The notes under the pieces: model-generated | What the model was told of the DNA's origin: nothing | Database searches by the model: none | Seen by the model: only the letters and a program-made list of their open reading frames with translations | Translations under genes and position numbers: made by a program | Assembly (NCBI GenBank): GCA_973895155.1 | Contig: OZ316892.1 | Location: 10,862,320-10,926,319, forward strand | DNA length: 64,000 nt | From: Marsupella aquatica | Taxonomy: Eukaryota; Plantae; Marchantiophyta | Reading direction: 5' to 3' | Shown: positions 29,021 to 52,709 of the stretch, in pieces | Layout: each line of letters begins with the position of its first letter | Numbering within the stretch: position 1 is the first letter of the stretch

Positions 29021-29734
29021 GCTCAAAGAGTCCTCATGAGCATGTACATCTCAGACAGAAAAAGAATTGTAGCTGATTTTTTAGTCCACGTGAGCTGACG
29101 AGGGTGGTTTCGTAGTCCTATTCGTACATCTGGAGTGACCGAAAACTTAACTGATTGTAGCTAATTGTTGAGACCGCATGAGCTGACCAGGACACAAGGA
29201 CATGTAGACACCGAAGTAGGCACATCTTAAGCTCTTAACAAATAGACAGGACAGGATACCAGCATGATTAAAACCGAAGGCCAGTAGTCCCTTGCCATGG
29301 CAAAGGACGATGCTAAGTAAAGCCGGCCGAGTGAATAGTTTGTGTAGAAAAAGAATACTTGAAGCTTTGAACAAATTTGTCCCAAAAGCAATTTACATGC
29401 AACCCCTAAACCACATACCCGCTCAAGTTACTTTTGTTTGAAAGACATTTCTTGTTTGAGGCTCCAGACAAAATCACTTCTAAAGCAGTTGTCATGCAGA
29501 TCTTTGGTCACCTCTCGCCGAAAACCAGAAAAGATATTAGTCATGCATCCCACTCAAGTTGTTGTACCATTTTCCAATGAGGGGAGACTTCAAACCTGCA
29601 CTAAATGACGAGGGCTTGCCGTATGCCAGCGTCGCTCTAGATGCCTCCTGTCTCCCGGTTTGGACTTGCCCGGCAAATAGACCGTTTTAAGGCCGTCAAC
29701 CGGCAAGCCGACACCCGGTCTCTCCCGGTCGTCA

Positions 29735-30366
29735 TCATCCGGTCCCGGCCCGAGTAAATCCGGTCCCGGCCTGAGTACTCCCGGTCCTCTTCCCTCCCGG
29801 CCCCGGACCCTAAACTTCCCCCGGCCCGGACCCTTCACCCTCCCGGCCCGGACCCTAACGCCCCCCCCCCCCGCCCCGGACCCTTCACCCTCCCGACCTG
29901 GACCCTAAAGCCCCCCCCCGCCCCGGACCCTAAAGCCCTCCCGGCCCGGACCCTAAAGGCCCCCGCCCGGCCCGGACCCTAAAGCCCTCCCCCCGGCCCG
30001 GACCCTAAAGCCCCCCCCGGCCCGGACCCTAAAGCTCCCCCCCCCTCCCTCCCCGGACCCTAAAGCCCCCCCCGGCCCGGACCCTAAAGCTCCCACCCCT
30101 CCCACCCCGGACCCTAAAGCCCCCCCCCGGCCCGGACCCCCCCTCCCGGCCCGGACCCTAAAGCCCCCCCCTCCGCCCCGGTCCCTAAAGCCCCCCCGGC
30201 CCGGGCCCACCATGAGGGACCGGGTCGGGCGGGGGTGGGCCGGGCCGGGCCGGGCCGGGGGGGCTTTAGGGTTAGGTCGCGAGGAGGGCAGCCGCCGGGG
30301 GGGATCGGGCTCGGCCACCCGGGGTCGGCTCGCGAGGTGGGGTGGGGGGATGAGTCCGGGACCGGG
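29735..30366. repeat. Left subterminal array of the hAT element (CCGGACCCTAAAGCCCC units, then a G-rich segment)
   Basis: More than 10 degenerate CCCGGACCCTAAAG(C)n units; extreme GC content. Confidence 0.9.
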
Positions 30367-30368
30367 GC

Positions 30369-30456
30369 TATAAAGTGAGGAGGTCTCCTCACTTTCTCTC
30401 ATTACTAACTTCTCAACTAAAGTTTGCTTGTTTTGTAGGAGAGACCTTTGGTAAGT
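30369..30456 (+). promoter_or_regulatory. Putative TATA box and 5'-UTR splice donor for the hAT cargo transcript
   Basis: TATAAAG at 30369 directly follows the GC array. Donor TTG/GTAAGT at 30451 precedes a T-rich intron, with a candidate acceptor TTCAG at ~31055 upstream of ATG 31169. Confidence 0.45.
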
Positions 30457-31168
30457 TTTTCTTGCTTTTGCTTATGTTTTGCTTAGTTTTGAGTTTAGTT
30501 TACTAGTTTTTGAATTGTTTTGAGTCTTTTTTTTGCTATGCTTTGCCATGTATGACTTTAACATTTAGTTTTAATTTGGAGGGATATTAGTGTTCTCACG
30601 AATGCGCATGCTTGGAGCTTATGCTTGGCATGTGGTATTTCGTATGAGAGGACCTAATATTGCCTTAATAGTTTAGTGTGATTTGTGAATTGAGTGGAGT
30701 ATTTTCTAGGATAGAGATTTTCATGTACGCATGCTTGGAGTTTCCGCTCGGCATGTGGTACTCTGCATGGATATCTCGATTCCTTGTAAATATTTCCACA
30801 ACATTTACAAATGACATCTAAATTATAGGTTTCACATAGATTGGAATAGGAATGTAACAACTTGAAGAAAAAGACATCTTTTGTGCGCATGCTTGGAGTT
30901 TCGGCTTGGCATGTGGTATTTCACATAGTTGTCTTTCCCCTTCATCGTTGTTACTTTCAAAGTACTAAACAAACGAATAAAAAATTGAACAAATATTAAA
31001 ATTTCATTGCTTGGGTATTATTGGTACCAACACAAAGTGTGAAATGACATTTCAGGATTTTTGATCCAGCTTTATTGTACTTGCATCATCCATACCCTCG
31101 GCAAGCAGCCAACACACTCCGTAAGCGCCTATTCTTTGTCCTACAACTTGTTGTGGTTACTTGAGAAC

Positions 31169-32826
31169 ATGGCCGCTGCAAATGTGAGTGTAGAGTATAT
31201 GAAACTTTTTGAGGCAATGAAGACCATGCTAAACGAGGGATATCAACCAGATCCTCATGCCCTCAATGCTCTACGGAATGCTCACAAAACCTTAGAAATT
31301 TGTAAACATGGCAAAACCTTAGGGAAACGGAAACATAGAGGAGGAGCAATTGGTGCTGCATTGAAAGAGAGAAGGCAACATGTGTTAGTTGCGATTTGGA
31401 AAAAGATTCTATATCCCTACACTTTGCCAGCACAGTATGAGCAGGATGGCTTTGAGAGGAAGTATGCTATGCATGGAGTAGAGGGTTACAAAAACCTTTT
31501 AAATGACATGTGACGTTGCATGCGTGAGACTGTGGAGAAAGAAGAGGACATGACCCGAGATGAAATTGCTGCCTTAATAAGTGATTTTGAGAAGCCGGGT
31601 GGATTTGTTGAACATTTGACGTTGAACTTTGCGGTAAATCTTTGGGACAAGTTGGAATCCAATTTGGATGAGGCTGGGGCCGTCATGCTTGGAGTTCCTG
31701 GGCTATACACACATAGAAGAGATTTGCTAGCTAAATGGAGCAAAGAGTTAGCAATGGCCAAATCGGAGAGTAATGTCAAATATGCAAGCAAGGTCGTGCA
31801 GTTTGGAGAGATTGGCATGGAGGTTGCAGATAGAGGAACGCGTCCATCACGAGTTGTTCCCATGGTCAGGAGTATTCATTTCTTGAGGAGGGAGCAAGTA
31901 TCGAATTTGCATCGCATTGGAAGCGGCATCCAAGGACATGTGTTCATATGTCATATATTGGATTGCCCATTGATTCCTCGAAATGCAACACTGGTTGCAA
32001 AACGATTTAAGGATGGAGACCGGCACAAGAGACGAACAGATGCCTTACAGAAGTGCTCATGGGAGGTTTGAATCACAAAAGAATAATTGGGGTCTTGGCA
32101 ATGACTATCGAAGATCCACCGAAACTTATCTATGACCATTACAATGGAGGAGACTTGGGAAGCTTCATAGATAAGTGTGGGAAATGGAGTAAGAGCAAAG
32201 GGAAGACACAATCCACTTTTGAGGTTGATGTGACATTCATATCCAAAAAGAAACTCTTTTTGGAACATCGTTTGGGGATTGCTATGGCTCTATTGGAGAC
32301 CTTGCAATATTTGCATGCACACGACCGTTTCCATTGTGATCTTCATTTTGGGAACATCCTTCTTCACTTTGATCACGAGGATGATTTGGCAATTAGAGTT
32401 TATGTAGGAATATGTGATTTTGGGTTGTCCAAACACAAGTCACAATGCACATTACCACAAAATCGAATGTGGCCCACCCCTACAGAGAAAGCAGTTGCGT
32501 ATCAAAAACAATATCCACAATTGGCGCCTGAGCTAGTTCGTTCCGATCCAGTAGAGTACAGTCAAGCAACTGACATATATGCTTTGGGCAATGTCTTTGA
32601 GACATTACTCACAAAAAATTGGGATGGAATGACCCCAATGACACGATATTTGAATAGGGGTTGGAATGCTAGAGAGCATGGCCTTAAATTGGATATTATG
32701 ATACGTGACATGATGGCCATTGATGTCAAGAAAAGAATGGATTGTGTTCATTGGAGTTTGAGAATGATGAGGACATTCCAAGATTGTAGATTAGTTCAGC
32801 ACAATAGTCCTTATCTAAGAGATTAG
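31169..32826 (+). pseudogene. Cargo gene 1: N-terminal helical region plus TKL-like protein kinase (~552 aa reconstructed)
   Basis: ORFs 31061-31513 and 31520-32071 are in frame across one TGA; a 1-nt frameshift near 32050 joins 32053-32826. Kinase motifs: IGSGIQGHV, VAKRF, E of helix C (ALQEVL), HCDLHFGNILL, ICDFGLS, LAPE, TDIYALG. Confidence 0.88.
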
Positions 32827-33010
32827 AGATTTCATAGTTTCATCGTGAATGACAATGATAGATGTCATGAACTATTATCTATTTAATCATGTCATATGAA
32901 TTAAATGTATTACTCATTTTGCTTCATTGTATTTTGTTATCAATTTTATCTTGAAGGGTGTATGGTGAATGAATGCTAAAAATGTTTTTATTATTGTAGA
33001 ATCTGCAAGG

Positions 33011-34825
33011 ATGGGAAAATGGGATTTGGAATCCGACGAGGAGGAAAAACCTAAAAAGATTCTATATTTATATTTACAACCTGCTCAGGATTTACACCTT
33101 TGGTCTCAGGATCAATACGCTGAAGAAGATTCTCAACCCATAGACGAGGACATTGGAATGAGTAGCAATCATGTAGGGCAAAGCATAACCAAAACGGATG
33201 AGGACACCAAGGATGTTGAATGGAATATCACAATGCCAAATATGAAACCTCCTCACAATGAATGACCCATCAACGCCAAAGAATTGGAGATATTGATGCC
33301 ACGTGTGGAGTTCCAAAAATGGATGAAAATCATTTTTGATGATGAAAATTTATGGGCCACAAGGTCTTGGATGCAAAAGAAGTACACAATGTCCAAGGTA
33401 ACACATGTGGAAATTGGCAAGCATTGGCAGCAAAGATTTCGAGAGTATGCTCCAAAGAAAGCGTAAGGCAAAACAAGCTCGGTTTATCCTCCTTTTCTCC
33501 GACTCCTAATTGCTGAATTTATTCTCAAGTGGAAGGTGGATTATCGTTGGGAAACAGAAGAGGGCAAGATGACTCACTCTGTACATCAGTCTGTCCTGGA
33601 CATTGCAGGTTTCAAGAACAACAAAAATACTACAAAAGATATGTCGAGTCAAGCAACCAACAAAGGGTCAAAAAGAAAGATACATGATGTGCAAGACATT
33701 CATGCACATCAGAAAGATAAGCCGACTGCACTGGAACGACTCTTCACTAAATCTGAAAGTTTCAGCGCACCAAAACATGTGGACAAAATATCAAACATTG
33801 CAGCATCTACAAGTAACAATTTACCAGAAAAGTTCACTGGTGTTTTGGATCCAAAGAAAGAATCATTGAGCATGGAGATTGTGTGCAAAAGTTTGGGCAC
33901 AGAGATTGGTCATTTGATTGAGAATAATCTCCGCACAAAGTTTTGTCTTGACCTTTGTGAAGCTGGCAGCATTGACTACTACAAGTCAAAGTTGCAAGAT
34001 AATGTTTTGAAGATGAAAGCAATGGAAAAAATGCCCATTCAAAGTGTGACTACTTTGGAGGTGAAGGAATACAAGGTGCAACTGTACGACAAGATGGAGG
34101 AGATTGCAAAGCTCAACAAACAACTTGCCCAAAAGGATGGTCAATGTAGTAAAATGAAACAAGTTCAAGAGGCAGATAGAGTCATTGAGGATTTGAAGAA
34201 TCAGGTTGCATCACAAGAGGTGATCATAAGCAATCTGCAAGAGGAGATCGAGCAAATGAACACTGCTGAGGTGGATGGGCAGTCAGACAAGGAAAAATCA
34301 AGATGCAAGAACTACAATTATATGAACTTGCAAATGATTGATCCTACGGGAGAATCTCATCTTTTTCCAGATGTGGAGGAGGATCCAGAAGATGTAGAGA
34401 AATTTTTTGACAAGTGGAAGACCGATGAAAGTATGGCCCAATTTGTTTGAGAAAAGGATGGAAGATGTACTTGGTGCTTGTATCCATGGGGTCCTGAATC
34501 TGTTTCCATTTTGGGAACATGCGGTCACTTATGGCATCATGCTTGCTTGTTTCGGTGGATGAAGAAGAGCCGAAAATGTTGGTGTCGGAAACCATTTCAT
34601 GAACGAGAGTATGAGCAACGAGGTTTGTTGAAACAAATACCACCAATGGAGACACAGCAAGACACTGAAGACATGACTCAAGAGAGTATTGCAATGGCAC
34701 AGATCGATTCAAGGCCCATTGACAACTTCATAGTTAATGAATACAACTTGTTAGATGGTGACTTTGACAATTTGCTATTCAGCGGTAGATTCCAACAGTG
34801 GAAGGAATATGCCATGGCGAATTGA
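33011..34825 (+). pseudogene. Cargo gene 2: coiled-coil plus C-terminal RING-H2-like finger (~604 aa reconstructed)
   Basis: ORFs 32969-33265, 33284-33466, 33536-34450 and 34478-34825 share one frame, broken by 3 single stops. The coiled coil is at ~34060-34270. RING pattern: CTWC-x14-CGHLWHHAC-x9-CWC. Confidence 0.8.
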
Positions 34826-35048
34826 CCAACAACAGATGAGCAAAACATGCAGCGATCTATTCGTCGCCATCGTCGTCGTCAGCAACTGGTAGAGGTGAAA
34901 GCAAAAGCGCAAGACAATGAGAACCCAAATGAGTAGATTGCACACACAATGTTTAGTATAGCATATTTTATTGCATAGGACATGCACAATCCGACATAGT
35001 ATATCATAGTTTGTTGTATAGTACTAGCATGTAATACCTAAACAGATA

Positions 35049-36998
35049 TCAAGGTTGTGACGAAAAGTGCCTTGTGTTATTGTTCTCATTTTCTTGCAAC
35101 TGTCGATCAAATTGAAATTGTCTTGTCATCCATTGGACCGGATCTGCGCTATGATATTCTTGAAATGCCCCAACACGGGCATGTATGCTTGATGTGTATG
35201 GATTTGTCATGTTCTGTCTTTCATACATATTTTGTGTTGGAGAAGCATGTTGTCCCCACTGTGCATCATCAGGTTGCGCAAACAAAGTTGATGTTATTCT
35301 CTCAGGACAGAGCTCCGATGCAGCACCTCGTCGTTGAAATAAGTACGAAGTACTTGCTTGGACATCATTTTGTAGATTCAATGTTGGGTATGTGAAGGAT
35401 GGGTTTGGTTGGGAAGACACTACAAAGTTTGCATCAAATGAGTAGTCCTCGTCATCCTGAATTTGAGACTCATCGATTGTAGGGAACATCATTAAATCCA
35501 TTTCATCTTCCCATTCTCCGACATCACTTATTTCAGTATCTGGTGGAATACGAGTCAACATGTCACTATCAGTGTGTAATGATAATCCTTGCAAAGCCTC
35601 ATCTGCGTCATCAATTGTATCAAAATCCTTCACGTCATCCTCTCCAAGAGCTGCACATGTAACACCATGTTGTTTAGTGTGACATCCTTCTATGGAAGTA
35701 GGCCTCGGGCCATCATTTGTTGCTGTTATTTCATCATATCGTCTATACATAGACGTATGAGGGTTTCTCACCTTCGTGAGCCCTTTTTGCACCCTCGAAT
35801 TTGTGAATACAAAAACCAAGTCTTTTGCCCAATCATTGGTCAACCTATTACGGCTTTTTGAATGGATAAAGCCGTACGAACTCCAATTTCGTTCGCATGA
35901 AGATGCACATATTTGTTGATGCGTGATTCTTCTCGCCATCAATCTTAGCTCCGCGTAATCAGCTCCATACAAATGCCACCATTCTCCTGGACTTAATTTT
36001 CCAATATTTGATTGTGCTCCTCTAATTGCAACCGATGAATTTGGCAATTTTTGAGCCTCAAATGCCTGCATTTGGATGTCAGAAATAAGTGTCGTCACAT
36101 CTCGATCATGGTTGATTCCTGCCTTCACCTTGTGTTCTGCATATCTACGAACATAATCATTGAAGCTTCTATACAGTTCTGCATCTCCTGCCACATCTTC
36201 ATCTTCATCGAAGAAAAATTGAGGATTCAGATATGCTGCTGCTAACATGAAATCAGTAGTAAGTGATTTTTGTCGTTCCATATACACTTTCATTATCTTT
36301 GGTTTTAAGTAATCTGTTACTAATGTACAACCCTCCATGCTCGCCTCCAGTTTAGCTATTCCTTTTTTCAAGCTCCAATATAGCCAAGGAGATTGTGGTG
36401 AAACTCCATCGAATTCTCGCAACATCTTCACCAACGGCAGAAAAAAGCAACTGTAGATTTTACTTGAGCCCAAAATGTATCTTGCTGTATCCACGATTTA
36501 AGTTCGTCTGCCTTTCCCCTCGTCATATGCCCCTGTGACTTTGGTCGAACTGGCAGACGATCACGATAGGATTGCCATTTATCATCAGTGACCATTTGTT
36601 GTAAAGCTCCTCTTAGCTCCAATGCTCTCTGCGCCATTAAAAAATTTGTTGCAAATCTCGTTGCATTTGGATTTAACATCTTCCTGTCACCAGATTTCCT
36701 CACAAATATTGCAGACAACTTTTGTGATGATGTAACTGCTTTAACTATCCATCTCAAGTGCTTAAAAATCATTTTGAATGGATTTTTTTCTGCTCATCTA
36801 GCACAACATTCTTGTGGCCACACATGTCTTCTAGCAACAAATTAAAAACGTGGGCAGCACACCAACTTCATGTCACATGCGGATATTTTTTCATGACTAT
36901 CTCTTCACCTGCTACACGATTTGCAGGCGCCCCATCGGTAACAATTTGTATGATGTGATCGGCGCCAATGTCATCTATGTATTTTAACCACATGTCAC
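35049..36998 (-). pseudogene. hAT transposase, central and C-terminal part (DUF659-like/RNaseH-like core and hATC dimerisation domain)
   Basis: Motifs QIVTDGA, WCAAHVFNLLLED, PNATRFATNF, AAYLNP, EWWHLYG...ASSCERNWSSYGFIHSKSRNRL. One internal stop, a frameshift near 36440-36490, and interruption by the copia at 36999. Confidence 0.93.
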
Positions 36999-37343
36999 TG
37001 TTAGATATTGCTCTAGTCTTGTGACTCATGAGCTAACTACAGTTAGGCTAACTCGGGTTAGGACTTAGCTAATGTTAGCGGTAGTGCTGTTGTGTATATA
37101 GCCAGGGCTGATGCCAGACCCTGGTGGAACTTAGGCTCATTGTTACGGAGCTAGTTGAGAGATAGGGAGAGCTTGTGCTGTGGATGCTTGGTATGGCCGG
37201 TCGGCCTAGAGTGCAGTAAAGCTCTTGTGTGTTCCCGTGGACGTAGCCTCATGCAGAGGTGAACCACGTATCTCTCTGTGTCGACTATTGTGCGTTGGAG
37301 GGGTTCATGGGCTTGCCGTTACGAATGTCGTCAATGCTCAACA
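36999..37343 (+). repeat. 5' LTR of the nested copia
   Basis: 345 bp, nearly identical to 52917-53260 and 58906-59249. Confidence 0.96.
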
Positions 37344-38824
37344 AGTGGTATCAGAGCATGCCTGGGAGGTGACGAGGTTTTTTCGTGACAGGTTTTTTTT
37401 TCCAGCGTTCATTGTCGATGGTACATTCAGAGTTTCATCGCATGAAACTCGAATGTGTGTGGCTGAGCGGATAGGTTAGTGAGAGGGTTTTCTAACGGTG
37501 GTTAGAACTCGCTGATCGGTATCCGTGGTGCGGAGGAATTCAAATTTGCGTCATTCAGGTTTTATTCGTGTTTGACAGCTTTTCGGGGGAGAGACCAGAG
37601 ATCGCGTTCTTCAACGGTCTGAGCTATGCGGTGCGGGAGGGATCGCACATTATAGCTCAAGTTGAAGGTTGAAGCGAGCTGGTCATTTCAGTAGCTGGAT
37701 TGCTGCCGAGTTGTAACCGAGTGCGACATGATGAGTGAGGGAGGCGTTCAGGGTTTTTTCACAAGCTATGGAGCTTGTTCACATCTGAACCGGGTTTCTC
37801 TTCGTGACGTTCGACTCGGTGGAAGAGATGTGAAGTGCCACGGCTCAACGGATTGATCGCGGTGAGGCGGTCGTTTTGAGTCCGGGATTGGTACTTGACG
37901 CGGAGTGAAGGCGACGCGGTGGAATTAATTTACTCTGTTGGAACAGCAGAATGTGCCGGTGATATTCGGCCACTTTCCCCATCGGCGGTGGTCACTTTCC
38001 TCAAGCAAACGGCAAGGCAAGAGTATCATTTTTGCTTTGGGTGGCAGTTTTGTTTTAGGTTACTATAGTGTGATTTTTTTGTGTGTATACACACGTAGTA
38101 AACTAAATTTTTTTGGGGGGCCTTTCGCCCTTCGCCCGAGCGCCCCTTGTATTGCCGTCAGCCGCGAAGCGGCTGTGCCCTTCCGGCTCCCTCCTATCTC
38201 GCCGGACCAGTACCCCAGCTGCGTACGCAGCCGTATTTTCACACGAGTGAACCTCCTGTGTACCTCGGCATTGTACCCGGCCCTTATACCGAGTATTTTT
38301 TGGTAAGGGGCCTTTGCACCCCCTTTTGGGTGCTTTTTTATTTCCTTCTTTTCCTTCCCTTTTGTTCTCCTTGTCACGGGACCTGCCGCCCTCCGATTTA
38401 ACCGCTCCGATAGGGGGAACGGCCCCCTGTGAGACCTGTCGGACTGTGCGGGAATATTCCCGAAAAACAGAGAGCTGTTTTTCGGTCGTCCGGCAAAGAT
38501 TCTGTCCGCCGAACGGTAACTTTTTTGGTTCTTTTTTGGTGAGGAGGTTGCCACTGGAGTTAGCAACGTGGCGCACCGATCACATCACGATTCCGATGAC
38601 GGGTTATACTGGGTATTTTGGTTATTCTCCGAGGTGGTCAAAATGGGGGAGTTTCCCAAGGTTTTACCCACCCCGACCGAAATTTGAATAACTTTTCCGT
38701 CGAATTTTGATTTTGATTTCGGCTTTCAGTATTGGACTCCTAGCTTCGTGGGCTACGCGGCGATGTTGAGTTTTGAGTTTTGTGAGAAGTTTCAAAAAAA
38801 GACGTTTTTTCGTGATTGTTTTAT

Positions 38825-41800
38825 ATGAGTGACTCGGAGGATACTGGAAGAATTGGCGTCGGTGGAGCTTCAGGATCGCGACGTTCAGGCGGAGAGTCTG
38901 AGGAGGAGCTGCTACCGTTTGAGGAGGAACAAGTAATACCGGTACGATCACCGGTGCAACGTGCAGTGGAGGAAGCTGTACTACTACCAGAGCTGTCGGT
39001 AGTGGGGAAGAAGAGGCAGATGGCTAGATTTGGAGGAGTGAAGTTTGAGGTGGAGAAGTATGATGGTCGTACTGATTACTTGTTGTGGGAGAAGCAAGTG
39101 AAGGGTGTTCTTCGGGCCATGGGCTTAGCTCATCTGCTTTCTTCGCGAGAGCAATATGATGGAGAAGAGGAGATCTTAGAGAAGCAGTGGAGACAGGAGC
39201 AGGTGATTGTTGTCAATGCAGTGATGCTATATCTCAAGCCGCACATCATCAAGCAGCTGGATGATTATGCGGATTGCGCGTCACTGTTCAAGGTTCTTAG
39301 AGAGAAGTACTACCGGGAATATGCGTCAGACCGGCTGTACAAGAAGTCTCTCTTGATGAGCCTCAGGCTCAAGGAATGGAGCAAGATGCAGGATCACCTG
39401 GATGAGTTTGACAGTCTAGCGATGGATCTGTCAAACCTGGGAAAAGGAGTTGAAGATGAGGATAAGGCCTTGCTTCTGCTAAGCTCCTTACCGCCGTCAT
39501 ATCAGGGCTTGAAACAGGTGCTCTTGTATAGAGATCTAAAGTCCATTTTGTATAATGAGGTGGTGAGCTCCTTGCTGTTTGATGATGTTCAAAAGAAGCT
39601 GGGTCAATCACAGACAACATCTTCTTCTGGCACTGCGTTGAATGTGAACCGTGGAAGAGCAGCACAGCGCACGAATGGGCAGAACAGGTTTAGATCTACA
39701 TCACGGGGGAGATCTAAATCCAAAGGAAAATTGGAAGAGAGGAAGCCTCTTGCATGTTGGAATTGTGGCAAGCCAGGCCACATGAAAAGGGATTGTCGAG
39801 TAAAGAACCCTACTGCATCTGCTAACGCGGCATCGAGCTCGCATGAGGTAGATTTACTCGATGATGATGACATATTGTGATGTCAAGGTTATGCTCTCAA
39901 CGTAGTGTCAAATCCAGAGAGTGATGACTGGATTCTAGATAGTGCATGTACTTTTCACATTTGCTCTAGGAGAGATTTTTTCAGTTCTTACACGGATTCC
40001 AACGGGTCAGTGTTGATGGGAAATGGAATCCCATGTCAAGTTGTTGAACTTGGATCTGTAAGATTTCAGATGTTTGACGGTGCTGTGAGAACGTTGAGGA
40101 ATGTGAGACATATTCCCAGCATGATGAAAAATCTCATTTCACTTGGAGTTTTAGAAGCAAATGGCCATCAGTGGAGTTCTGCTAATGGTGTCCTTCAGGT
40201 TTCAACTGGTACTAAAGTTGTATTGAAGGGAAAGAGACATAGCAATCTATACATTTTGGAGGGCTGTGGAGTTTGTGATGAAGCCAATGTAACCTTATCT
40301 CATGAGGAGACGGCCCGGCTGTGGCACTTCCGTTTGGGCCACATGAGTGAAAAAGGTTTGGTTATTCTTCAGAAGAAAGGATTACTTTCTAATTTGCAAT
40401 CTTGTAAGTTGGAATTTTGTGAGCACTGTGTGCTAGGGAAGCAGCACAGGAAACCCTTCGGAGTTGGAACTCACACCAACAAGGAGATACTTGAGTATGT
40501 ACATAGTGATGTGTGGGGTCCAGCCCCTACTCCCTCACATTCTGGATGATTATACTATGTCATGTTAATAGACGATTACTCAAGGTATGTGTGGATATAT
40601 TTTATACACAGTAAGTCTGATGTTTTTGCCACTTTTAAGGAGTGGAAAGCCCAAGTTGAGAATCAGACTGGTAATAAGGTGAGATATCTACGATCGGATA
40701 ATGGCGGTGAATATAGTTTCGGGGAATTTAGAACGTATTGTAAGGATCAAGGGATAACCCACCATCTCACAACAAGTTATACTCCTCAGCAGAACGGTGT
40801 TTATGAGAGACTCAACCAAACACTGTTGGACCGCTCGAGGAGTATGATGAGTCAATCATGCTTACCACATGAGTTTTGGGCTGAAGCTGTCAACACTGCA
40901 GCTTATTTGGTAAATTTTTCTCCATCCAGTTCTATTGGATTCAAGACACCATATGAAATGAGGTACATGCGTCCAGCAGATTATTCATATCTGAGGATTT
41001 TTGGATGTGATGCTTATGTGCTTACACCTTCCCAGCTTCGATCCAAGCTGGAGTCCAAGTCGAAGAAGTGCATATTCCTTGGCTATCAGAAAGGTGTGAA
41101 GGGTTATAGGTTATGGGATCCAGTAACCTGTAAACTAATTGTCAGTAGAGATGTGTCCTTTAATGAGTCCAGATCATCAAAGGAGGGGGAGAGTTCTCAG
41201 GACTCCCATACTGACAAGGGGAAATCTCCCATCCCGGACCCGGTTGAGGGGGAGATTAGTCATGATGCAGTTCATGACAGGAGAGATGGAGAAGCTCCGG
41301 GCTTGGAGCTGGTTCCTGCGATGGAACAAGAGGAGCAGATTGTTGCTAGGGTACCTCAAATTCAACCAGCAACAATAGCAGATCAGCCTGAGTCATCTAC
41401 TAGAAGAACTTCCAGTCGTTCTACTAGAGCTCCTACCAGGTATGGTCAATGGGCAGACTCATCTAAGCTAGATGATATTGACATTGCACCTGATGATGAT
41501 GACATGACTTTGATCTTGGAAGAAGGAGAGCCTTCTTCGTACAGTGAGGCTTGTGCTTCAGAGCAGAAGCATGAGTGGAATGCAGCAATGCAGAGGGAGT
41601 TGCAATCTTTGAGTGACAACAAGACATGGGAGCTGGTGGAGCTTCCAAGAGGTCAGCAAGTGGTGGAAAGCAAGTGGATTTACAAGTTGAAGGACAGTCC
41701 TTCAGAGGGTGGAGATAAGATCTACAAGGCAAGGCTTGTTGCCAAGGGGTTCACTCAGAAGAAAGGAGTGGACTACAATGAGGTCTTTTCACCGGTGGCT

Positions 41801-42757
41801 AAGTATTCCACAATTCGGATCTTGTGTCAGCTTGTTGTGTTTTTTAATCTGGTGATGGATCAGATGGATGTTGTTACTGCTTTTCTCTATGGCAACTTGG
41901 AAGAGATGATCTTCATGAGACAACCACTAGGCTTTATGAAGAAGGGCCAAGAGAACTTAGTTTGCAGATTGCTCAAATACTTGTATGGATTGAAGCAATC
42001 TCCCAGACAGTGGAACAAGCGGTTTGATGATTTCATGCTTGCTCAAGGTTTTACAAGGATGGTGTATGATCCTTGTGTGTATACGAAATCAGTCAAGAAT
42101 GATGTATTTGGTTTCATCATTCTGGTGATCTATGTGGATGACATGCTGATTGTGGCTAAAGATCAATCTGAGGTTGACAATCTCAAGGCGAAATTGAGTG
42201 CTGAATTCAGGATGAAGGATCTTGGTAAGGCCAAAAGGATCTTAGGGATGGAGATTTTTAGGAACTCTGATACTGGACAGTTGTGCTTGAGTCAAGGCCA
42301 GTATGCGAGGAAAGTACTTGCACGATTCAACATGGAAAACTGTAAGCCAGTGAGTATTCCTTTAGCTTCACATTTTAAGTTATCATCGGCTTTCTCTCCT
42401 ACGGATTCTGTGGAGAAAGGTTTGATGGCTAAGATTCCTTATGAGAAGGCAGTAGGTAGTCTGATGTATTTGATGACTTGTATTAGGCCTGACTTGGCCC
42501 TAGCGATGGGCAAGGTTAGCAGATTCATGTCAAATCCAGGGAAGGTACATTGGGAAGCTGTGAAGTGGATTCTCAGGTATCTGAAGGGTACACAGGACTA
42601 TGGATTACTATTTGATAACAGATCAGATAGAACGTTAGTTGGCTATGTAGATTCTGACTATGGAGGCTGTCTGGATACAAGGAGGTCTACAACTAGGTTT
42701 GTATACACTCTTGGAGGAGGATGTATCAGTTGGAAATCTACCTTGCAGAAGTGCATT
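38825..42757 (+). pseudogene. Copia gag-pol (gag, zinc knuckle, PR, GAG-pre-integrase, INT, RT, start of RNaseH)
   Basis: Motifs KFEVEKYDG, CWNCGKPGHMKRDC, WILDSACTFH, LWHFRLGH, HSDVWGP, LRSDNGGEY, YKARLVAKG, YVDDML. One frame with in-frame TGAs at 39878 and 40547; cut by the CACTA at SWKSTLQKCI. Confidence 0.95.
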
Positions 42758-43402
42758 CACTACAACACTACCGACCCCTTTTGCGAACCCCGTCCCATCG
42801 CAACTAACAAAGGACCAAATTATGAAATTCTGGCGTTTGCGAAACGCTACGCATCGTAACTCTTTCGCATTCTTTGAAACCCACAGCTTCACAATCGGAC
42901 TTTCGCAACCCCTTCGCAACACCTTCGCACACTGCGAAACTTATTTTATCGCACATAAATCACATTTATGCGATCTCGACAGACTCTTTATCGGTTTGCG
43001 ACGCGCTCTGAACTATAACTTATTTGCGAAGCTGTTGTCTTGACAATTCCGTTGCCATTCATATTGTATCGCATAACTGCATCAGTCAGGGTGTCGCACA
43101 ATTGCGGAACCAAAAGTATCGCAATGTTCCAATAATCAATGTATGGCAAGTTTGTGATAGTATGGCGTTCGCATGTGTTTCGCAAGGATAGTTTGAGGGC
43201 TTGGTTTTGTATATTTGGGTTCATAATTGGGTTGGGGTCTTATTTCTCCACATGAAGATACCAAAGCAAAACTTTATATATGCCAAAAATCCCTGAATGT
43301 ACAAAAATTAGGGTTTTCTAAAACCCTATGGGGTATCAAATACCAAGACACTGTCCTTTGACTAATCCATATGCCATACGGAGTGAACTACATCTGCATC
43401 CT

Positions 43403-45428
43403 CTAGAATGGAGCCCGCCTACTCCTCTTTGCTGGCCTCTTCCCCTTGTCCTTCTTGCTTTGGGCGGGACGAGCTGGACGGGAGGGGGGTGGTGGTGGTG
43501 GTGGCGGTGGTGGTGGTGCCTGCTGCTCCTCCCCATCTGGCTCATCCTCATCATTGTCATCATCCTCATCATCATCCTCCTGGTCTCCTGGTGTGCTAGG
43601 TGTGGCAGCACTCCCTGCCCCTCTAGACCCACTCGTGGTGGCCCCGGTAGTGTCCCCATCATCAGCGCCGCTATCCTCCTCACTGCTATCCTCACTCCCC
43701 TCCTGCTCCTCCTTATCCTGCTTCCATGTCACAAGGTTAATTCGGGTTTAGGGTTAATAGGAAAAATGTATAAACCTTATAAATGGAATGGGTGCGGGTT
43801 TAGAAGGGTACTACAAATCACTCACACTAGCCAACTCTGCATCAACCAACTCAAAGAGATGTCTGGCCCCATGCTCTGCCCCTATCTCCATCTCCTTTGT
43901 TGTTATCTTGCGGCGGTACCTCTTATACTACCACAAAAAAATGAAACACCAAAACATAAGGGGCCCGGGTTAGTAACTAAGGGTACTTAAGCAAAAAAGG
44001 AATCCTAAAAAGGGTAAAAAGGGTACCCTAACCAGAAAAAACCCCATTACCCTAACAAACAAGCTTTGCGAAACTCCCACCTTCGCAAATTCAAATATAT
44101 TTAAGTTTGCGAAATAGACTGCGAATTGGATTGCCTCGCAATGGCTTCGCAAACCTTACGGGAAAAAGGTTATAATAGAGTTTGCGAAACAATTGCGAGG
44201 CAACCCGCTTCGCAATTGTTTCGCAAATTGTGCTTTTAAAAAAATCCGAGAAATGGCTAAGGCACGCAATGTGTCAGGGTGACCTAAAATGAAAGGGGAG
44301 GCCATAAGGGGTAAAGCAGAGGTCTGCAAGGGGCATTGCAGGCAAGCAAACAACAATTGAAGGCGAAGGAAAAGAAGCAGGGGAGGAGGGGAGAGGACTC
44401 ACGAAGGTTGCTTTCAGGTCGGGAAGTCCACCTTGCCCCATCTTGTGTGTGGTCTTGGGGCGTTTGCTGACTCGGTCTGCTGCAAGGATGAACTTCTGGG
44501 GTGGTGTCCCCACTTCATCCACGATGTGCTGCAGCTGAGAGACCTTCTCAGCCAATGCCTTGAGGTCTTTGTCTGACTTCCCGGCCTGAAGTGCCTTGGC
44601 CTCCTTCTCCTTCCAGAATTGGAGGTCCTTGGTTGCTTTCAGCTGCACCTCGACCTTATAGAACGCGTTCCACACATCCTCTGTGAATTGCACTGGCCTC
44701 CTCACGTTCCTGTACTCCTGCAAGCTTGCCAGGTAGGCCCTCACCTTCCTCCTATCATGGTATCGTGCTTGAGACATTGAATTCGAAATTCTATTTGTAA
44801 GCCACTGGTCATCAATCTCTGCTCCATTTCTGAATGAATCTTTGACCTGAGTCATTACTTTCCTCTGCTCTGCTCTGCTTAGTTTCCCCCACTCAACACC
44901 TCGTGCAAAGCTAGTCCTCACAGCAAGCCTGATAGTGCTCTTTGCCCCAATGTAGGCCAACTCAGTAGGAATGCCCTCAACCAAGGCAATCAATGGCAGC
45001 TTCTTCCTCTCTTCCTCCTTTTTCCACTGCGCCTCACGTTGTGCTCGAATCTCATCTCGTTCCTCCCTTCTCCTCTTCTTTTCGAGGGCTGCAGGAGAGA
45101 GTACTCCTGCCTTAGCCCTCTCCTCCTTCTTTCGTTTATTCTCTCTGGCCTTCTCCTCAGCTACAGCCTTTGCCTCTTTCTCCCTCTGAGCCTACCCTGC
45201 TGCAACCCCGGTTTGCAAAGCTTGCCCTAGAATTGCACTCAAAGAAGCAATCCCAGCTGGTGTACTCAAATCCAAATGGCTCAGCTGTGTGGCATTGAGA
45301 TGCTCGGCCATCAAATTCGTCCATTGATTACTCTCCTCATTCCTGTTCCCTCCATTGCCATTGCCACTCCCACTCCCACTCCCACTTGCCCCTGCCCCAT
45401 CCCCTCCACGCCCTCCACTAGAATCCAT
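43403..45428 (-). CDS. CACTA ORF2/TnpA-like gene, divergently transcribed, 3 exons (~480 aa) with one premature TAG
   Basis: Exons 45428-44403, 43927-43826 and 43717-43403 have GT-AG boundaries, all phase 0; TAG at 45192-45194. Contains a charged coiled-coil, HKMGQGG (resembling the H..G..G motif of En/Spm ORF2 proteins) and an acidic, poly-Pro, basic tail. Confidence 0.6.
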
Positions 45429-46794
45429 AGCTATCCAACACCAAGCGCGCACAAGCTCTCCTCCTGCCCTCCCTCACTTCAAAAAACGTCGAATGGGCCT
45501 TGTAACCCGGCGGGAAGGTCCGAATGCCCAGACAAAACACATTTGCGACGCAGTCCACATCGCAATTTGCGAATCAGCCCGCTTCGCAACTAGTATCTCA
45601 ACTTTCCAAAACCAATGCGAAACCACACGCTTCGCAAAGCCTTCGCAAAGCTGCAGACACGCGAAAAAATGCTCTCGGGCTCTGTTTTTCTGAAGCTATT
45701 GCGAAACATTTTGCTTCGCAAATAATGTGACCAAATTCTGAAGCAGGTTGCAAAGCAGGTCGGTTCTCAATATCGTGGCAATTCCTGGCGAATTTTTTTT
45801 TCACATTCTTTCCCTCCTCCTTTTGTTTAGGCCATGTAAGTTATACTATGCCCTTTTGTGTAATTAAGAAATTCCACCGTTTCAAATCCCGGCGTTTGTT
45901 AGGGTTGGGTCTTGGATGAAGCTGGTTTTTTTAGGGGTTAAAAGCGAGATTACCAGTCAAACATTCCGTTTTTTAAGCTATACATGGTGTGGGTGTAGGC
46001 TAATTTTGATAAGAGTTGGGTTTTGGTTTAAAATTAATAAGTGAGGAAAGGGTTTAGGATTAAAGTTGGGTTTGGGTTTAGGGTTTAAGTCTTTAATTTT
46101 GGGTTTAAGCAGGGTTTGCATTTGTGGTTGTAGGCTTTTAGGGTTCAAGCAAGGGTTTAGGGTTTAAAACAAAAGAGAGGAAGGGGATTGGGAGTGAGGG
46201 TCTAGGTTTTTGTAATAGGTCAGAGGTTTGGGGGTGAGGGTTTGGAAAAGGCAAAGCAAGGTTAGATGAGATTAATGTTTTAGTTGTTTTACCATGGGTT
46301 TTATGGGTTTTAATGGGTTTTATGGATCTTTTGGGTTTTAATGGTTTTTCCATGGGTTTTATGCTAACAAAGGAGGAGGAGCTATGACAACTTGCAGGGT
46401 GCGGCACTTTTGCATGAATTGATACTAGCTAATGCGTATGCATCGTATGAGCCCGGGCATCTGGAGGTACGGACTAAAATAGATGGGTCTAGTTAGGCTT
46501 ATTCATGTAATTAAAATTTTTGGTTCCCACTATCTATAAAGAGGACATGTATGTAAGGTGTTCGCTTTGTGTACTTGCAGCTTTTCTCATACTTCCAGAT
46601 TCGGTTCATTATTTTAGAGCCACAAGACCTATTGGCACCGCTGAGCCTGGGTCTCAGAAAGATATTTTTTAGTGTTCCTTTTGTGTTTGGTTTCATGTCA
46701 TCATTACTTGAGAACTTACATTTGTCCAGCTTGATATTGTGATGTTATTTGGTAATAACCCCTAACTTGCAAATTATACATCTTTGTAGGGGCA

Positions 46795-47945
46795 ATGTCT
46801 TCATCTTCTAAGATCTCCACCACAGATTCTTCCTCCTCCGATGAAGATATACCACCTCCTCCTCAACCTCACACGACTGCACCTCCTCCTCGTGGTCCAC
46901 CCCGTCAGCTTTGCCAATGTGCCAAATGCGTGGGTCAGGTTTCCCAAAAGTCCTATATATGCACCCAGCATATTGAGAGATATGGACGTTACGGACGTCA
47001 TACAACAGGGGCTTCCTCATCCCATGTGGTAAGTGTTTACGCCTTAGTTTCTACCCTATTTCCACATTGCAATGGTGAAGGTTTTTAATTTCACACCTCT
47101 TGTTGTTTGTTTTGGTTTGGGTGGAATAGGTATCTAGTAGGCCTAGACCTGCGGCATCAGCACCTTATGTCCCATCACAAGGTGTTCTAGATGCTATAGG
47201 CAATGCATTCTCACAAGCCTTGGGTCTAGCAACAACCCCCTCCAGTCCTAGGGCAGTTGGGGGTGAGCCTGTTGTCCCAAGAGGGAGAAAGCGTTCCAAG
47301 AGACGGCCCCGAGGGGATACTGATTTGTACAAGGCAGTGGTTACCGGTAGGTGGGGTGATTGTGAGTTTACTGGCAGATGTGTTCCTATCATCAAGGACT
47401 GGGATCCCCAGACTCTTGGTTTGCCACAAGAGCTTTCCTATGGTGAGGAGGTAGAGGTTTGGGGAAGACGTTGGGTTATCAAACCTTCCACACTTGGGGA
47501 TAGACATGGCTATGGAGTTTTTGCTTGTGAAGACATCATTGTGGATACCGAGAGTGGTAGTGGTGGACGCGGTCGAGAAGGACCTACGTTGTTTCCTTAT
47601 GGTGGACCCATCTACAAGAGAAGACATTGGAACATGATCCTTGCACAACATCCTGAGTGGAAGACTTATGCCTTGGAGTTAGATACTTTTGATGGAAACA
47701 CTAGGAGGTATAGTGAGGAGCGGGTGATAGATGGGGACCCCATACGAACTGGGTATATAGCTGGTTTCATAAACAGTACTGTGGGGACTCGCCCCAAGCG
47801 TAGGCAAAATTGTGAGTGGGTTTTCATTGAGGGTCCTCCACCAGCCCCTTATGGCCAGACATATCATCATGACCATTGTCTGGTTGTAGCTACTAGGACC
47901 ATTCACTCAGGTGATGAGTTGTTTACTCACTATGTGTGGGATTAG
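46795..47945 (+). CDS. Transposon-encoded zinc-knuckle plus SET-domain protein (349 aa; exons 46795-47028 and 47130-47945)
   Basis: Exon 1 has CQCAKC-x13-HIERYG (CACTA transposase-associated type). Donor GTG/GTAAGT and acceptor AATAG are phase 0. SET motifs: IKPS..GYGVFA..DI, FPYGG, YAL, IDG, GFINS...NC, VVATRTIHSGDELFTHY. NLS-like RGRKRSKRRPR. No stops or frameshifts. Confidence 0.82.
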
Positions 47946-50900
47946 AAAATGACCATACACATGGCGTTTGGCCACATTTTGTATTTACACCAGTACCGAT
48001 ATTATTTCATGTTTACACACCCCCATATATTCTTCTACATGTTGTAACTATTTGCTTTGTAACTTTCAATTGTTTGCATTGTTTTTAGAATGTGCGACCC
48101 TCTCAAAATATGTTACCGCGGAGATTGAGAGCAGCATATCGGGAAATGGGTATGCCAGAAGAAGGACAAGGCTCTGAGTCACATTCCTCATCAAGTGACA
48201 GTGGAAGCAACAACCCTGATTGCAATGTACCCAGAACATATGAACAGGTTATTGATGACCAAGATAGAGCCATGGATGATTTTATGGTTGATTGGTTTGG
48301 TGTTGACGTCCCTGGTGATGATGCTGAGGTGTCTGCTGATCAAGGAGGTCATGTGCCCCCCAATGATCCACGACCAAGACATACCCCCAAGGGACAGCGC
48401 CAATGGGAGGAAGCAGAGGAACATGCCCGAACTCCTATCTATGAGGGTGCTCGTTTGAGTCATCTTTCTGCTATCTTGGGGTTGATGAATCTACAGGCCA
48501 AACACAAGGCAAGCAATGCCTTGTTATCTGATATGTTTGCACTTTGCAATGACCTTATGTTACCTTCTGGCAATGTGTTGCCAGGAACTTGGAAGGAGGC
48601 CAAGCGTGTTCTCTCATCAATTGGCATGGAATATCATATCATTCATGCATGTGTGAATGATTGCATGTTATTTCATGGGGCCGATGAGAAGAAGACACAG
48701 TGTACTGAATGTCATGAGCCACGGTATGACCCCAACATGATTACAAAGAAGGTGCCAAGAAAAGCTGTTCGTTGGTTTCCCATCATTCCTTGGTTGTTGC
48801 ACATGTACAGGTGTTCTAATTTGGCAGAGTTGATGGTATGGCATAAGACTCATCGATCAAAGCCTGGTGTTATGCGGTTGCCAATTGACTCTCCTGCAGT
48901 CAAACATATTGAGGAAACATGGCCAGACTTTGCACATGATCCTCGTCATGTGAGGTTGGGATTGGCATCTGATGGGGTTAGTCCTCATGCCCTTGGAGGC
49001 AAGGGAAGACCTACATCAGTTTGGCCTATGGTTGTGATGAATTATAACCTTCCACCATGGCTATCCATGAAGAAGGGGTTCCTCTTGCTGTCTTTGATTA
49101 TTCCAGGTCCAAAAAAGGTGAAAAACTTTGACACTTATTTGGCACTATTGATTGGAGAACTCCAAAAACTGTGGGGTGGAGTGTGGGCATATGATGGCAG
49201 GAAAAATACAGGAGGCATTCCACGTGTATTTAAATTGAGAGGGGTAGTTTGTTGGACAATGCATGACTATCCTGGTAAGATGACTTTTTGACCATATGCC
49301 ACCCTTCTTTGATATGCTCTTTAATATACTTGTTTGTCATGTGACAACCCTAACATTTAGTCTGGTTTTATTTTTGGTGTAACCAGGGTTTGGCTTTGTC
49401 TCTGGATTGCAAACTCAGGGGTACAAAGCTTGCTCCACCTGTGGTCCACAATTGCAAGATATGGCAATTTGGTCCCCATGGCTTAGGAAGATTGTTTACA
49501 TTGGGCATACAAAGTTTCTTCCAATGGGGCATGAGATGAGGTCTGACCCACTTTTATTTTCCTCCTTTGACATGCCCCTTAGTGATATGCGGGAAATTCC
49601 GGAACCAACAACTTTTGGGCATTGGAAGTCACTAGCTGATAGGGTGGCAGACCCTGATGATCCCCTCACCTTTGATGGTACTGGGTTGACGAGGTGGAGT
49701 ATACTAGCCAGTTTGCCCTATTGGTCAGAGTTGAAGATCCGCCATCTTTTAGACCCCATGCACATAGAGGGAAATGTGGGGAAGGCGTTGATAGCTCATT
49801 TTTATGGGGAGAAGGACACTAACTTCAGGGAGGCATGTGAAGAGTTGGAAATGCATCCAGATGTATGGGTACAAGTTGATCCTGCCACAGGTTTGGAACA
49901 TCGTCCTTCTGCTCCTTGGGTGCTTAGTGTTGGCCAAAGATGTGAATTCCGGAATCGTATAGGGGAGATGCAATTTCCTACAGGCTATGGTGCCAATTTG
50001 AGGAAAGCTTTTGGGATGGAGGACAATCACAAATGGCCACGGTATCTCAAGACACATGACTATCACCGCTTATTGCAGCATATATTGCCAGTGGCAATTA
50101 TAGGGTTGGGGATCAAAGAAGTGCAAGATGCCATTTGGTCATTGGGTCGTTTGTTGAGATGGATATGCTCAAAGGAGATATATGTGGAAGAGATTCCTGG
50201 AATGGAGGTATTGGCAGCTGAGGTGGTTTGCAAGTTGGAGAAGGCCCTCCCTCCTTCCTTCTTTGATTGTCAGGTTCATTTACTTGTGCATCTTGTGAGG
50301 GAGGTTGCCATTGCTGGTCCAGTTCATTGTCGATGGATGTACTGGCTTGAGCGTTACATGTCAGTCTTGAAGGCTTATGTACGTAACCGTGCACGAGTGG
50401 AGGGAAGCATAGCTACAGGATACTTGGCTGCAGAGAGCATGTTTTATTGTAGTAACATCTTGGCCACCATTGATCGGACTTTACCACGTACTTGGATGGA
50501 GGAGAGGCAAGAGGAGGAGGACCGTTTAACAGGAGCAACAAAAACACGCATGCTTACATCAACAGAGTGGACACAGTTGAATACATTCATGTTGAGTAAT
50601 AGCAATGTCATGGATGAATGGAGGGAGTTTTATGACAATGCCAAAAGAATGAGTCAAAGGGCAAGGATTTTTCCTAAGTTGCATGAGTTTATGAAGGAAA
50701 AGTTGGTTGAGTTGGATGGCATTTTGGCACAAGGAGGAGATGTCTCACAGTTTCCTACTATGACAAATGACATTCGGACCATTGTTCATGGCCCTTTGAG
50801 AGTGGTAACATCCAAGACGGCCATGTGGACCCAAGGGAGACACTTCAGGTTTCACTAGTTCCTAACCTTGTTTTCCATATTCATGTACTACTACTTAAGA

Positions 50901-52364: not shown

Positions 52365-52709
52365 ATATCTCAGTCTACTACAGAAGGAGAGTATGTTGCA
52401 GCAGCAGAAGCAGCAAAGGAAGAAATTTGGTTGGACAAGTTAATTGCGGAGATGGGTTTAGAGCATGGCAAAATGACTCTAAATTGTGATAGTCAGAGTG
52501 CTCTGCACTTGGCTGCTAACCAGGTGATGGATAGCAGGGTGAAGCACATTGATATCAGGTACCATTTTATCAGGCAAGCAGTGTCTGATAAAACTTTTGA
52601 GCTAGTCAAGATTGATGGAAAGCTCAATCCCGTTGATGCCTTTACCAAAGTGATTTCTTTGGAGAGTTTCTCAAGACATCGTGCTACTTTGCAGGTTTTG
52701 CAGTTGTAG
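52365..52709 (+). pseudogene. Copia RNaseH C-terminal part (continuation after the CACTA)
   Basis: SQSTTEGEYVAA, CDSQSALHLA, KHIDIRYHFIR, NPVDAFTK. Confidence 0.95.

Follow-up and report, generated by a model that had tools for sequence, protein, structure and literature searches.

Few transposon-encoded counter-silencing proteins are, to our knowledge, known in plants. The DUF659-type hAT transposons presumably represent the plant Ac/Tam3-related branch. Transposons with accessory enzymes are already known. Fungal hAT7 elements carry TET/JBP genes, and IS3EU elements carry TET/JBP together with alpha-kinase genes (PMC12730594); the targets of VANC proteins are tandem non-coding repeats within their own elements (PMC5735166); the KRMA kinases of nematode Mavericks resemble CtkA/HipA and ride virus-like elements, and msft-1/tlpr-1 is a MULE-borne toxin-antidote pair whose toxin is a protease (10.1101/2022.07.12.499685). 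An earlier note on this DNA had stated that hAT elements normally code for nothing but a transposase; this is too strong, fungal hATs with TET/JBP genes or with histone H3 copies having been published. Among the papers listed by full-text literature searches none describes a hAT carrying a kinase and RING pair; Repbase Reports and most subscription journals lay outside these searches, so that a Repbase entry may exist.

Here we describe such an element, probably from a liverwort, in a window of 64,000 nt (i.e. the whole stretch of DNA analysed). Its kinase and RING genes are very probably selected accessory genes of the element.

Boundaries and content of the element

The hAT element occupies positions 29654-54098. 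Its inverted ends measure 9 bp, the 8-bp target duplication is exact, and the transposase, of the DUF659 type, is encoded on the minus strand. The features of the element are the following:

29646..29653, no strand: target-site duplication, left copy, 8 bp, TCCTGTCT
29654..30368, plus strand: left end, TIR CCCGGTTTG (29654-29662) and GC-rich subterminal array of ~15 units of ~25 bp (CCCGG/GGACCCTAAAG)
30369..30374, plus strand: TATAAA box, cargo promoter predicted from the sequence
30451..31055, plus strand: predicted 5' UTR intron, GTAAGT donor at 30451, TTTCAG candidate acceptor ending at 31055
31169..32826, plus strand: kinase gene, 552 aa, from ATG 31169 to TAG 32826
32827..33010, plus strand: AT-rich spacer of 184 nt between the kinase and RING genes
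33011..34936, plus strand: RING-H2-like gene, 641 aa, four in-frame stops at 33263 (~33265), 33464, 34448 and 34823
35049..36998, minus strand: 3' part of the hAT transposase (end of DUF659, dimerisation domain, acidic tail), one stop and two frameshifts
36999..53260, plus strand: Ty1/Copia retrotransposon inside the transposase, 5-bp TSD GTCAC, LTRs identical at 338 of 344 positions
42758-52364: CACTA element interrupting Copia
53261..53545, minus strand: remaining 5' part of the hAT transposase (start of DUF659), N-terminus deleted in the window copy
53546..54098, minus strand: right end, GC-rich CCCGGGCC subterminal array and 9-bp TIR CCCGGTTTG (54090-54098)
54099..54106, no strand: target-site duplication, right copy, 8 bp, TCCTGTCT

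Taken alone the TIR 9-mer is at chance level (12 matches with at most one mismatch, 10.84 expected). The boundary is nevertheless real because the 8-bp duplication is exact, which by our own arithmetic has a chance of ~1.5e-5, and because terminus 54098 is common to the family. DUF659 was matched in both halves of the transposase (Pfam, E=1.2e-10 and 8.6e-13) and Dimer_Tnp_hAT at E=2.6e-9. The element thus displays the hAT superfamily characters, i.e. an 8-bp TSD, short TIRs with CCCGG-rich subterminal repeats, and DUF659 and dimerisation domains, and the initial reading of a hAT with a left TIR and a convergent transposase is borne out.

The copy in the window is dead: its transposase has lost the 5' end and carries the Copia insertion with the nested CACTA. 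Copia and CACTA are later insertions and lie outside the cargo module. The N-terminus, where a hAT transposase would have its BED zinc finger, is thereby missing; in other copies the transposase frame continues past 53545 (~27 letters shown). Two further ideas about the ends were discarded. Methylation-protected ends are unsupported by the CpG observed/expected ratios, which indicate no better preservation in the ends (0.63-0.70) than in the flanks (0.68-0.75). As for a telobox in the left array, AAACCCTA occurs 0 times and only ACCCTAAA is present.

Other copies of the family

At the right terminus (54098) 7, 20 and 17 contigs, from three sequencing runs, continue into unlike flanks with an agreement of 0.39-0.48, and the depth of run X2 is in the thousands inside the element and 31 just outside 54098. 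Four of the five stops in the cargo genes (31511, 33265, 33464 and 34823) are replaced by sense codons in other copies; these four lesions are private to the window copy. The order of the module was recovered in several contigs: record 21 extends from the left end across the kinase into the RING gene, and record 22, diverged and 7334 nt long, has kinase and RING genes spaced as in the window copy. Cargo and transposase are adjacent in other copies as well, the end of the RING gene being joined to the end of the transposase in records 6, 12 and 24. Circumstantially, kinase P0002 and RING protein P0010 come from the same source, both with a longest contig of 5391 nt. The kinase and RING cargo therefore belongs to a multi-copy hAT family.

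The kinase and RING genes and their homologs

Upstream of the cargo genes, the TATA box and UTR intron previously proposed are represented by TATAAA on the plus strand at 30369, the donor at 30451 and the candidate acceptor at 31055; these signals stand, and splicing of the intron is a prediction. A 27-nt hairpin-forming motif occurs three times in the predicted intron (30606, 30729 and 30887). A second candidate acceptor lies in the spacer (AG at 32998-32999), 11 nt before the ATG of the RING gene. The same 11-nt offset between acceptor and ATG is found in L001, a metagenome locus, whose spacer is 182 nt.

The kinase frame of about 552 aa is confirmed, with two lesions in the window copy, a stop at 31511 and a one-base frameshift near 32045, and a Pfam Pkinase match (E=2.4e-14). 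It comprises a helical N-terminal domain with a basic patch, followed by a TK/TKL-like kinase domain with the loop HCDLHFGN. Active eukaryotic protein kinases share a Gly-rich loop, the beta3 Lys, the alphaC Glu, HxDxxxxN, DFG and an APE-like motif. All six are present in the window translation, in P0001 and in P0002, which suggests that the kinase is active. Among 11 homologs scanned, HxDxHxxN and DFG were each found in 10. The residue two after the catalytic Asp is His, versus Lys in most Ser/Thr kinases. The basic patch (residues 35-58) recurs in 13 of 15 kinases, these being hand-picked homologs scored without a shuffled control. A structural model of the kinase matched only generic kinases, both cellular and viral, and gave no indication of a viral origin.

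The RING gene had been read as 604 aa ending at 34823-34825. It is in fact 641 aa long with four stops and ends at 34936, because homologs extend past the stop at 34823-34825, where a sense codon stands in other copies. The order of the protein is acidic tail, unnamed folded domain, KRK linker, coiled coil, RING and basic helical C-terminus. Its RING has the spacing C-x2-C-x14-C-x-H-x2-H-x2-C-x10-C-x-C, the last cysteine pair being C-x-C instead of the usual C-x2-C. The window RING-H2 matches Pfam at E=4.7e-5 and 24 bits, under the cut-off of 27.3, and the best zf-RING_2 score was 26.8 bits against the same cut-off. Seven of the 11 proteins scanned have the eight-ligand C3H2C3 pattern; the four others are P0009, which ends before the RING, P0007, which departs there, and two short fragments. 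These motifs point to a putative E3 ligase. KRK lies at residues 204-234 in six of seven RING proteins (hand-picked homologs, without shuffled control).

The model of homolog P0015 has a long coiled coil, with a mean pLDDT of 49 and values below 50 in the RING region, and Foldseek returned nothing for this model at E<=0.001. A wide structural search with the RING protein was filled by coiled coils, so that the N-terminal domain was barely probed, and an Atlas search with residues 72-215 gave no usable match. For the complex predicted between kinase P0002 and two parts of RING protein P0010, alignments not being used, the median score was 0.01.

Full-length homologs exist for the kinase (P0001, 553 aa; P0166, 547; P0173, 540) and for the RING protein (P0015, 632 aa; P0011, 643; P0010, 624). 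They align colinearly over their full length, so that no coding introns are needed, in agreement with the tandem intronless genes first described. The only named close homologs are from the liverwort Calypogeia fissa, where the kinases lie on at least 8 contigs, mostly as fragments, and form two diverged subfamilies. In a FastTree analysis a clade of 18 rows (support 98) unites the close kinases and separates them from named host kinases; the tree holds 120 of 166 rows, 46 having been dropped for lack of the catalytic-loop motif or for shortness. Only one RING homolog is named, P0007; at the RING it diverges from the family, and it lies on a 27.2-Mb contig that is listed for none of the Calypogeia kinases. 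A metagenome scan yielded 19 loci, of which L001 (1561 nt) is the only close kinase relative; it has 33 codons of frame after the kinase, whose match to the RING gene is unproven. In a viral collection the RING alignment gave 135 pattern matches and 0 confirmed relatives.

Compared with L001, the kinase has a dN/dS of 0.14 (254 codons) and 0.20 (111 codons), from a single pair near saturation (dS ~1.8-2.0). By this codon comparison the kinase is under purifying selection.

These data bear on the possibility that host genes are carried passively (transduplication), amplified with the element and of no use to it. Capture and amplification of host histone H3 by a hAT is published (PMC6710886), the window copy is decaying, and the search, which returned no close parent gene of the cargo among its matches, was made without the host genome. 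Passive carriage sits badly with a kinase dN/dS of 0.14-0.20, at dS near 2, and with homologs 36-62% identical that retain full length, catalytic motifs and zinc ligands. The cargo coding regions are moreover intronless, unlike a nearby host gene, which is divided into exons, and no named ordinary host kinase appears among the best 17 kinase matches. We consider passive carriage very improbable. Nor does the cargo resemble a Pack-type capture, i.e. a decaying fragment or chimera of host genes, given its full-length colinear homologs and the kinase dN/dS. The closest homologs among the matches are not intron-containing host genes, and other copies do carry the module. The proposal of full-length element-borne genes thus holds, on the multi-copy family, the sense codons at the lesions, the transposase linkage, the intact homologs, the kinase dN/dS and the lack of a close ordinary host kinase among the matches.

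Possible roles of the pair and comparison with known systems

What selected accessory genes of this kind do for the element is a matter of weaker probabilities. Our tentative reading, to which we give somewhat less than even chances, is that the pair forms a nuclear phosphorylation/ubiquitination module weakening host silencing of the element. Both proteins would be nuclear, as their conserved basic patches suggest, and a single promoter, the one next to the left end, would serve for both, probably through two alternative splice acceptors. The kinase would mark a host silencing or chromatin protein and the RING ligase would tag the marked protein for removal; the unnamed N-terminal domain of the RING protein and the non-coding repeats of the element possibly steer the module to the element. 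Such an anti-silencing or anti-defence role is suggested by nuclear-signal-like motifs and by precedent. In Pfam neither cargo protein matched VANC, a DNA-binding domain or any known reader of chromatin.

The same conservation and nuclear-signal evidence would fit regulation of the element's own transposase, the kinase activating it or coupling it to the cell cycle, with the RING ligase clearing spent or excess transposase, thereby limiting damage to the host. Two extra genes (~3.6 kb) would be a costly self-regulation because most hAT elements move with their transposase alone, and we regard this explanation as rather unlikely. It draws on the linkage of the pair to a single type of transposase, and on the transposase-derived RAG1, whose RING finger works as an E3 ligase (PMC1131882). 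The window transposase also has a long, acidic, Ser/Thr-rich tail.

Liverworts are haploid-dominant, which would suit spore killing by a toxin-antidote pair: the kinase would poison cells or spores without the element and the RING ligase would destroy the kinase in carriers. The tight tandem linkage of the cargo genes points the same way, nematode MULE TIRs enclose such a pair, and Maverick cargo kinases resemble toxin kinases (10.1101/2022.07.12.499685). But the window kinase is TK/TKL-like, unlike the HipA/CtkA type of the Maverick kinases, and with many dispersed copies nearly every spore would inherit the antidote, so that the drive would fade. We hold spore killing to be quite improbable.

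Within the anti-silencing reading, a more specific version is that a bryophyte hAT lineage has its own phospho-degron pathway, complete in itself, in which one promoter and alternative splicing would yield a nuclear kinase marking a host silencing protein and a RING ligase destroying the marked protein. This version seems doubtful to us; if true, it would be a virus-style counter-defence unit in a simple cut-and-paste element. The plant counter-silencing examples compared here act on DNA methylation or histone methylation, and a conserved kinase and RING pair would show a DNA transposon carrying its own signalling and protein-degradation enzymes. Since intact homologs are public (P0001, P0166, P0015 and P0011), a liverwort model can be used to look for the substrate directly, and the substrate would indicate which host protein is most important in the silencing of DNA transposons in bryophytes. 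Liverwort annotations contain a set of unnamed kinase and RING gene models without introns, which the family accounts for as transposon cargo.

Among known systems, the fungal TET+ elements likewise combine cut-and-paste transposition with full-length accessory enzymes, and the layout of IS3EU is that of the window element, with a kinase gene opposite the transposase and a second accessory gene between (PMC12730594). They differ in host kingdom and superfamily, their kinase is an alpha-kinase and not TK/TKL-like, and a DNA dioxygenase gene takes the place of the RING gene in the middle. VANDAL/VANC of Arabidopsis, the model for the proposed function, shares an element-encoded accessory protein and tandem non-coding repeats (PMC5735166), but it is a Mutator and not a hAT, and its function is shown for VANC, while the window pair would act through protein-modifying enzymes. 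KRMA and msft-1/tlpr-1 offer, respectively, a mobile-element-associated kinase family and a two-gene module inside TIRs; unlike in the window element, no RING protein is described in the available part of the paper (10.1101/2022.07.12.499685). In Pseudocercospora a hAT has also multiplied a full extra gene, histone H3, there a copy of a known host gene and inactivated in all copies (PMC6710886), whereas for the window cargo the matches include no close host parent, and this cargo is, by the kinase codon comparison, under purifying selection. With the DUF659-type hATs the window element has in common short TIRs, an 8-bp TSD, subterminal repeats at both ends, DUF659 and a C-terminal dimerisation domain; to these it adds ~3.6 kb with two conserved accessory genes, under a separate predicted promoter and convergent with the transposase.

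Organisation of the hAT element and of its cargo

The hAT element, its cargo genes and the nested insertions are as follows.

29654-54098, hAT element, 9-bp inverted repeat CCCGGTTTG at each end
30369, TATAAA, upstream of the cargo genes
30451-31055, predicted UTR intron, between TATAAA and the kinase gene
30606-30632, 30729-30755 and 30887-30913, three copies of a 27-nt motif, within the predicted UTR intron
31169-32826, kinase gene, 552 aa, one stop and one 1-base frameshift
184-nt spacer between the kinase gene and the RING start at 33011
33011-34936, RING gene, 641 aa, four stops
36999-53260, Copia element, TSD GTCAC, LTRs identical at 338/344, interrupting the hAT transposase
42758-52364, CACTA element, nested within Copia

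By itself the 9-mer CCCGGTTTG occurs in the window about as often as chance predicts (12 matches at up to one mismatch, against 10.84 expected). The ends of the element are fixed by an exact 8-bp duplication, the identical 8-mer TCCTGTCT flanking it on both sides. GC-rich CCCGG arrays adjoin both termini on the inner side, and CpG ratios gave no sign of the element ends escaping methylation. The transposase lies on the minus strand, with DUF659 in both halves and a dimerisation domain; once Copia is subtracted the element measures 8178 bp. A tandem repeat of ~138-bp units (28753-29191) stands immediately outside the left end.

Upstream of the Tnp2 transposase, the CACTA element has a SET-domain frame (47130-47942; Pfam SET E=4.2e-5, above the cut-off) and a 305-aa minus-strand frame without a name (44277-45191). 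With the SET frame in CACTA and the kinase and RING genes in hAT, two nested DNA transposons thus have chromatin-type or signalling cargo. The window also holds a solo LTR from the Copia family described above (58906-59249; 95% identical to the element's LTRs, 5-bp TSD TTGTA), more diverged LTR-like pieces (58136-58470 and 20512-20692) and, on the minus strand, another Copia-type reverse transcriptase in a decayed state (4152-5665).

The earlier note had placed, beyond a TATA box and a UTR intron, two genes without coding introns and with two or three lesions each, the RING gene ending at 34825 (~604 aa). The 552-aa kinase gene in this setting is borne out, the UTR intron being a prediction, and the lesion count stands for the kinase but not for the RING gene. 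The RING end is displaced: homologs extend beyond the stop at 34823-34825, where other family copies have a sense codon, and the gene therefore ends at 34936. Since homologs of both proteins align colinearly over their full length, coding introns are indeed unnecessary in either gene; the host PfkB-family carbohydrate kinase gene of the same window (exons at 14830-16500) is spread across several frames.

Upstream of the cargo stand a single TATA box and a single strong donor, and a candidate acceptor is retained 11 nt ahead of the second ATG, so that the simplest reading would be alternative splicing from one promoter for both genes. The 27-nt motif is absent elsewhere in the window. Each copy folds as the same bulged hairpin (z -3.1, -3.2 and -2.1) with a variable 4-nt loop, UUCG in one copy. 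Run X5, in which the bulk of the cargo has diverged too far to be aligned, keeps high depth in the two bins over the UTR intron; the motif may thus be a conserved cis-element, and perhaps a binding site in RNA or DNA.

Other copies of the family

Of seven sequencing runs listed, four were set against two stretches of the window; all consist of contigs, and none is recorded as RNA. At the right terminus 7 (X1), 20 (X2) and 17 (X4) contigs continue into unlike flanks (agreement 0.39-0.48); the left terminus is absent among the loose ends listed. Depth in X2, which is not a copy number, drops from thousands within the element to 31 beyond the right terminus. The hAT element is plainly repetitive, with insertions at many sites. 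A 1022-nt contig of X2 matches both sides of the Copia insertion site.

Sense codons stand in other copies at 31511, 33265, 33464 and 34823, the positions of four of the five stops. Homologous proteins read through the fifth (34448) and the kinase frameshift, neither being among the contig differences listed. Forty differences were listed. With 12 that came mostly from a single run set aside, 28 were examined, and in 19 of these the window copy has a C-to-T or G-to-A change, the pattern expected of a silenced element in decay. The transposase frame extends past 53545 in other copies, hence its 5' deletion is private to the window copy.

Other hAT copies carry the module. One contig (record 21) covers the left end, the kinase and the RING start; another of 7334 nt (record 22), its aligned pieces ~77-82% alike to the window, separates its kinase and RING pieces by 2182 nt, where the window has 2203; in records 6, 12 and 24 the RING end is joined to the transposase end. 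Such a pair could act as toxin and antidote, for which there is a precedent (10.1101/2022.07.12.499685), but we hold this to be distinctly unlikely. An internal-deletion derivative, joined from 31899 to 35226 in X2 and X4 (short side 40 letters), has lost the greater part of the kinase, all of the RING gene and the end of the transposase.

Relatives and selection

Full-length homologs were found for the kinase (P0001, 553 aa; P0166, 547; P0173, 540; P0002, 636) and for the RING protein (P0015, 632 aa; P0011, 643; P0010, 624). All close relatives with a species name come from the leafy liverwort Calypogeia fissa, which suggests a liverwort host; Riccia fluitans is the source of one distant kinase relative. 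Calypogeia kinases occupy at least eight contigs of differing size, are fragments except one and form two diverged subfamilies, as expected for transposon cargo. For both P0002 and P0010 the longest contig listed measures 5391 nt and comes from one source, which is suggestive, though no proof, of adjacent genes. Speaking against linkage, the sole named RING homolog (P0007) is on a contig not listed for any Calypogeia kinase.

In L001, a 1561-nt metagenome locus, the kinase is followed by a 182-nt spacer, with an AG 11 nt ahead of the ATG as in the window, and by 33 visible codons of the next frame. Against L001 the kinase dN/dS is below 1: 0.14 over 254 codons and 0.20 over 111, at a dS of about 2. 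The cargo is real, element-borne and conserved. Passive capture of the genes, although it has a precedent (PMC6710886), is very improbable.

In a FastTree tree of 120 of the 166 hit rows, whose deeper joins are unsure owing to long branches, the window kinase falls in an 18-row clade (support 98). This clade is nested in a group of 50 rows, most of them kinases without a name, whose loops read HxDLH or HxDLS; ordinary HRDLK/HRDLA kinases lie elsewhere in the tree. Unnamed HxDLH-loop kinases around it include P0035, P0036, P0038, P0053, P0056 and P0045, among others, one being from Riccia fluitans.

The two proteins and their possible role

By sequence the closest solved kinase is Roco4 (E=2.5e-9), and in fold its model matches receptor tyrosine kinases; the domain is thus TK/TKL-like, without a close named relative. 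It retains the kinase motif set (Gly-rich loop, beta3 Lys, alphaC Glu, catalytic Asp and Asn, DFG and an APE-like motif), with His at Asp+2. Helices are predicted over the N-terminal 200 residues; of 15 kinases chosen by hand, 13 have a basic patch at residues 35-58, in a weakly ordered loop.

In the RING protein, residues ~80-210 form a conserved folded domain, for which no match was found, followed by a long coiled coil and a basic helical end; six of seven RING proteins have a KRK patch. Its eight zinc ligands are conserved, the final pair being an unusual C-x-C, as are two residues that RING ligases use with E2 enzymes, the Trp and the Arg that follows the last Cys. From the conserved motifs, basic and KRK patches, zinc ligands and E2-contact residues we infer two nuclear enzymes. 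The pair might control the element's own transposase, with the RING finger borne by RAG1 as precedent (PMC1131882), but this seems rather unlikely.

Because the genes are under purifying selection and unneeded for cut-and-paste, probably reach the nucleus and have a precedent, we tentatively favour counter-silencing as the reason why the element keeps them: kinase and ligase would disable a host silencing or chromatin factor, and the element would retain both. A function beyond these four readings is unlikely.

VANC, the anti-silencing protein of Arabidopsis VANDAL (Mutator) elements, acts on tandem repeats belonging to its own elements (PMC5735166). Many host-protein contacts are predicted for Arabidopsis accessory TE proteins in a study whose main text does not contain "kinase", "RING" or "hAT" as whole words (PMC13547354). 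Full-text literature searches, which do not extend to Repbase Reports or most subscription journals, turned up no paper on a hAT element with a kinase and RING pair. Accessory enzymes on transposons, kinases included, are already known: in fungi, TET/JBP genes are present on hAT7 and IS3EU elements, and IS3EU also has an alpha-kinase gene, opposite its transposase (PMC12730594).
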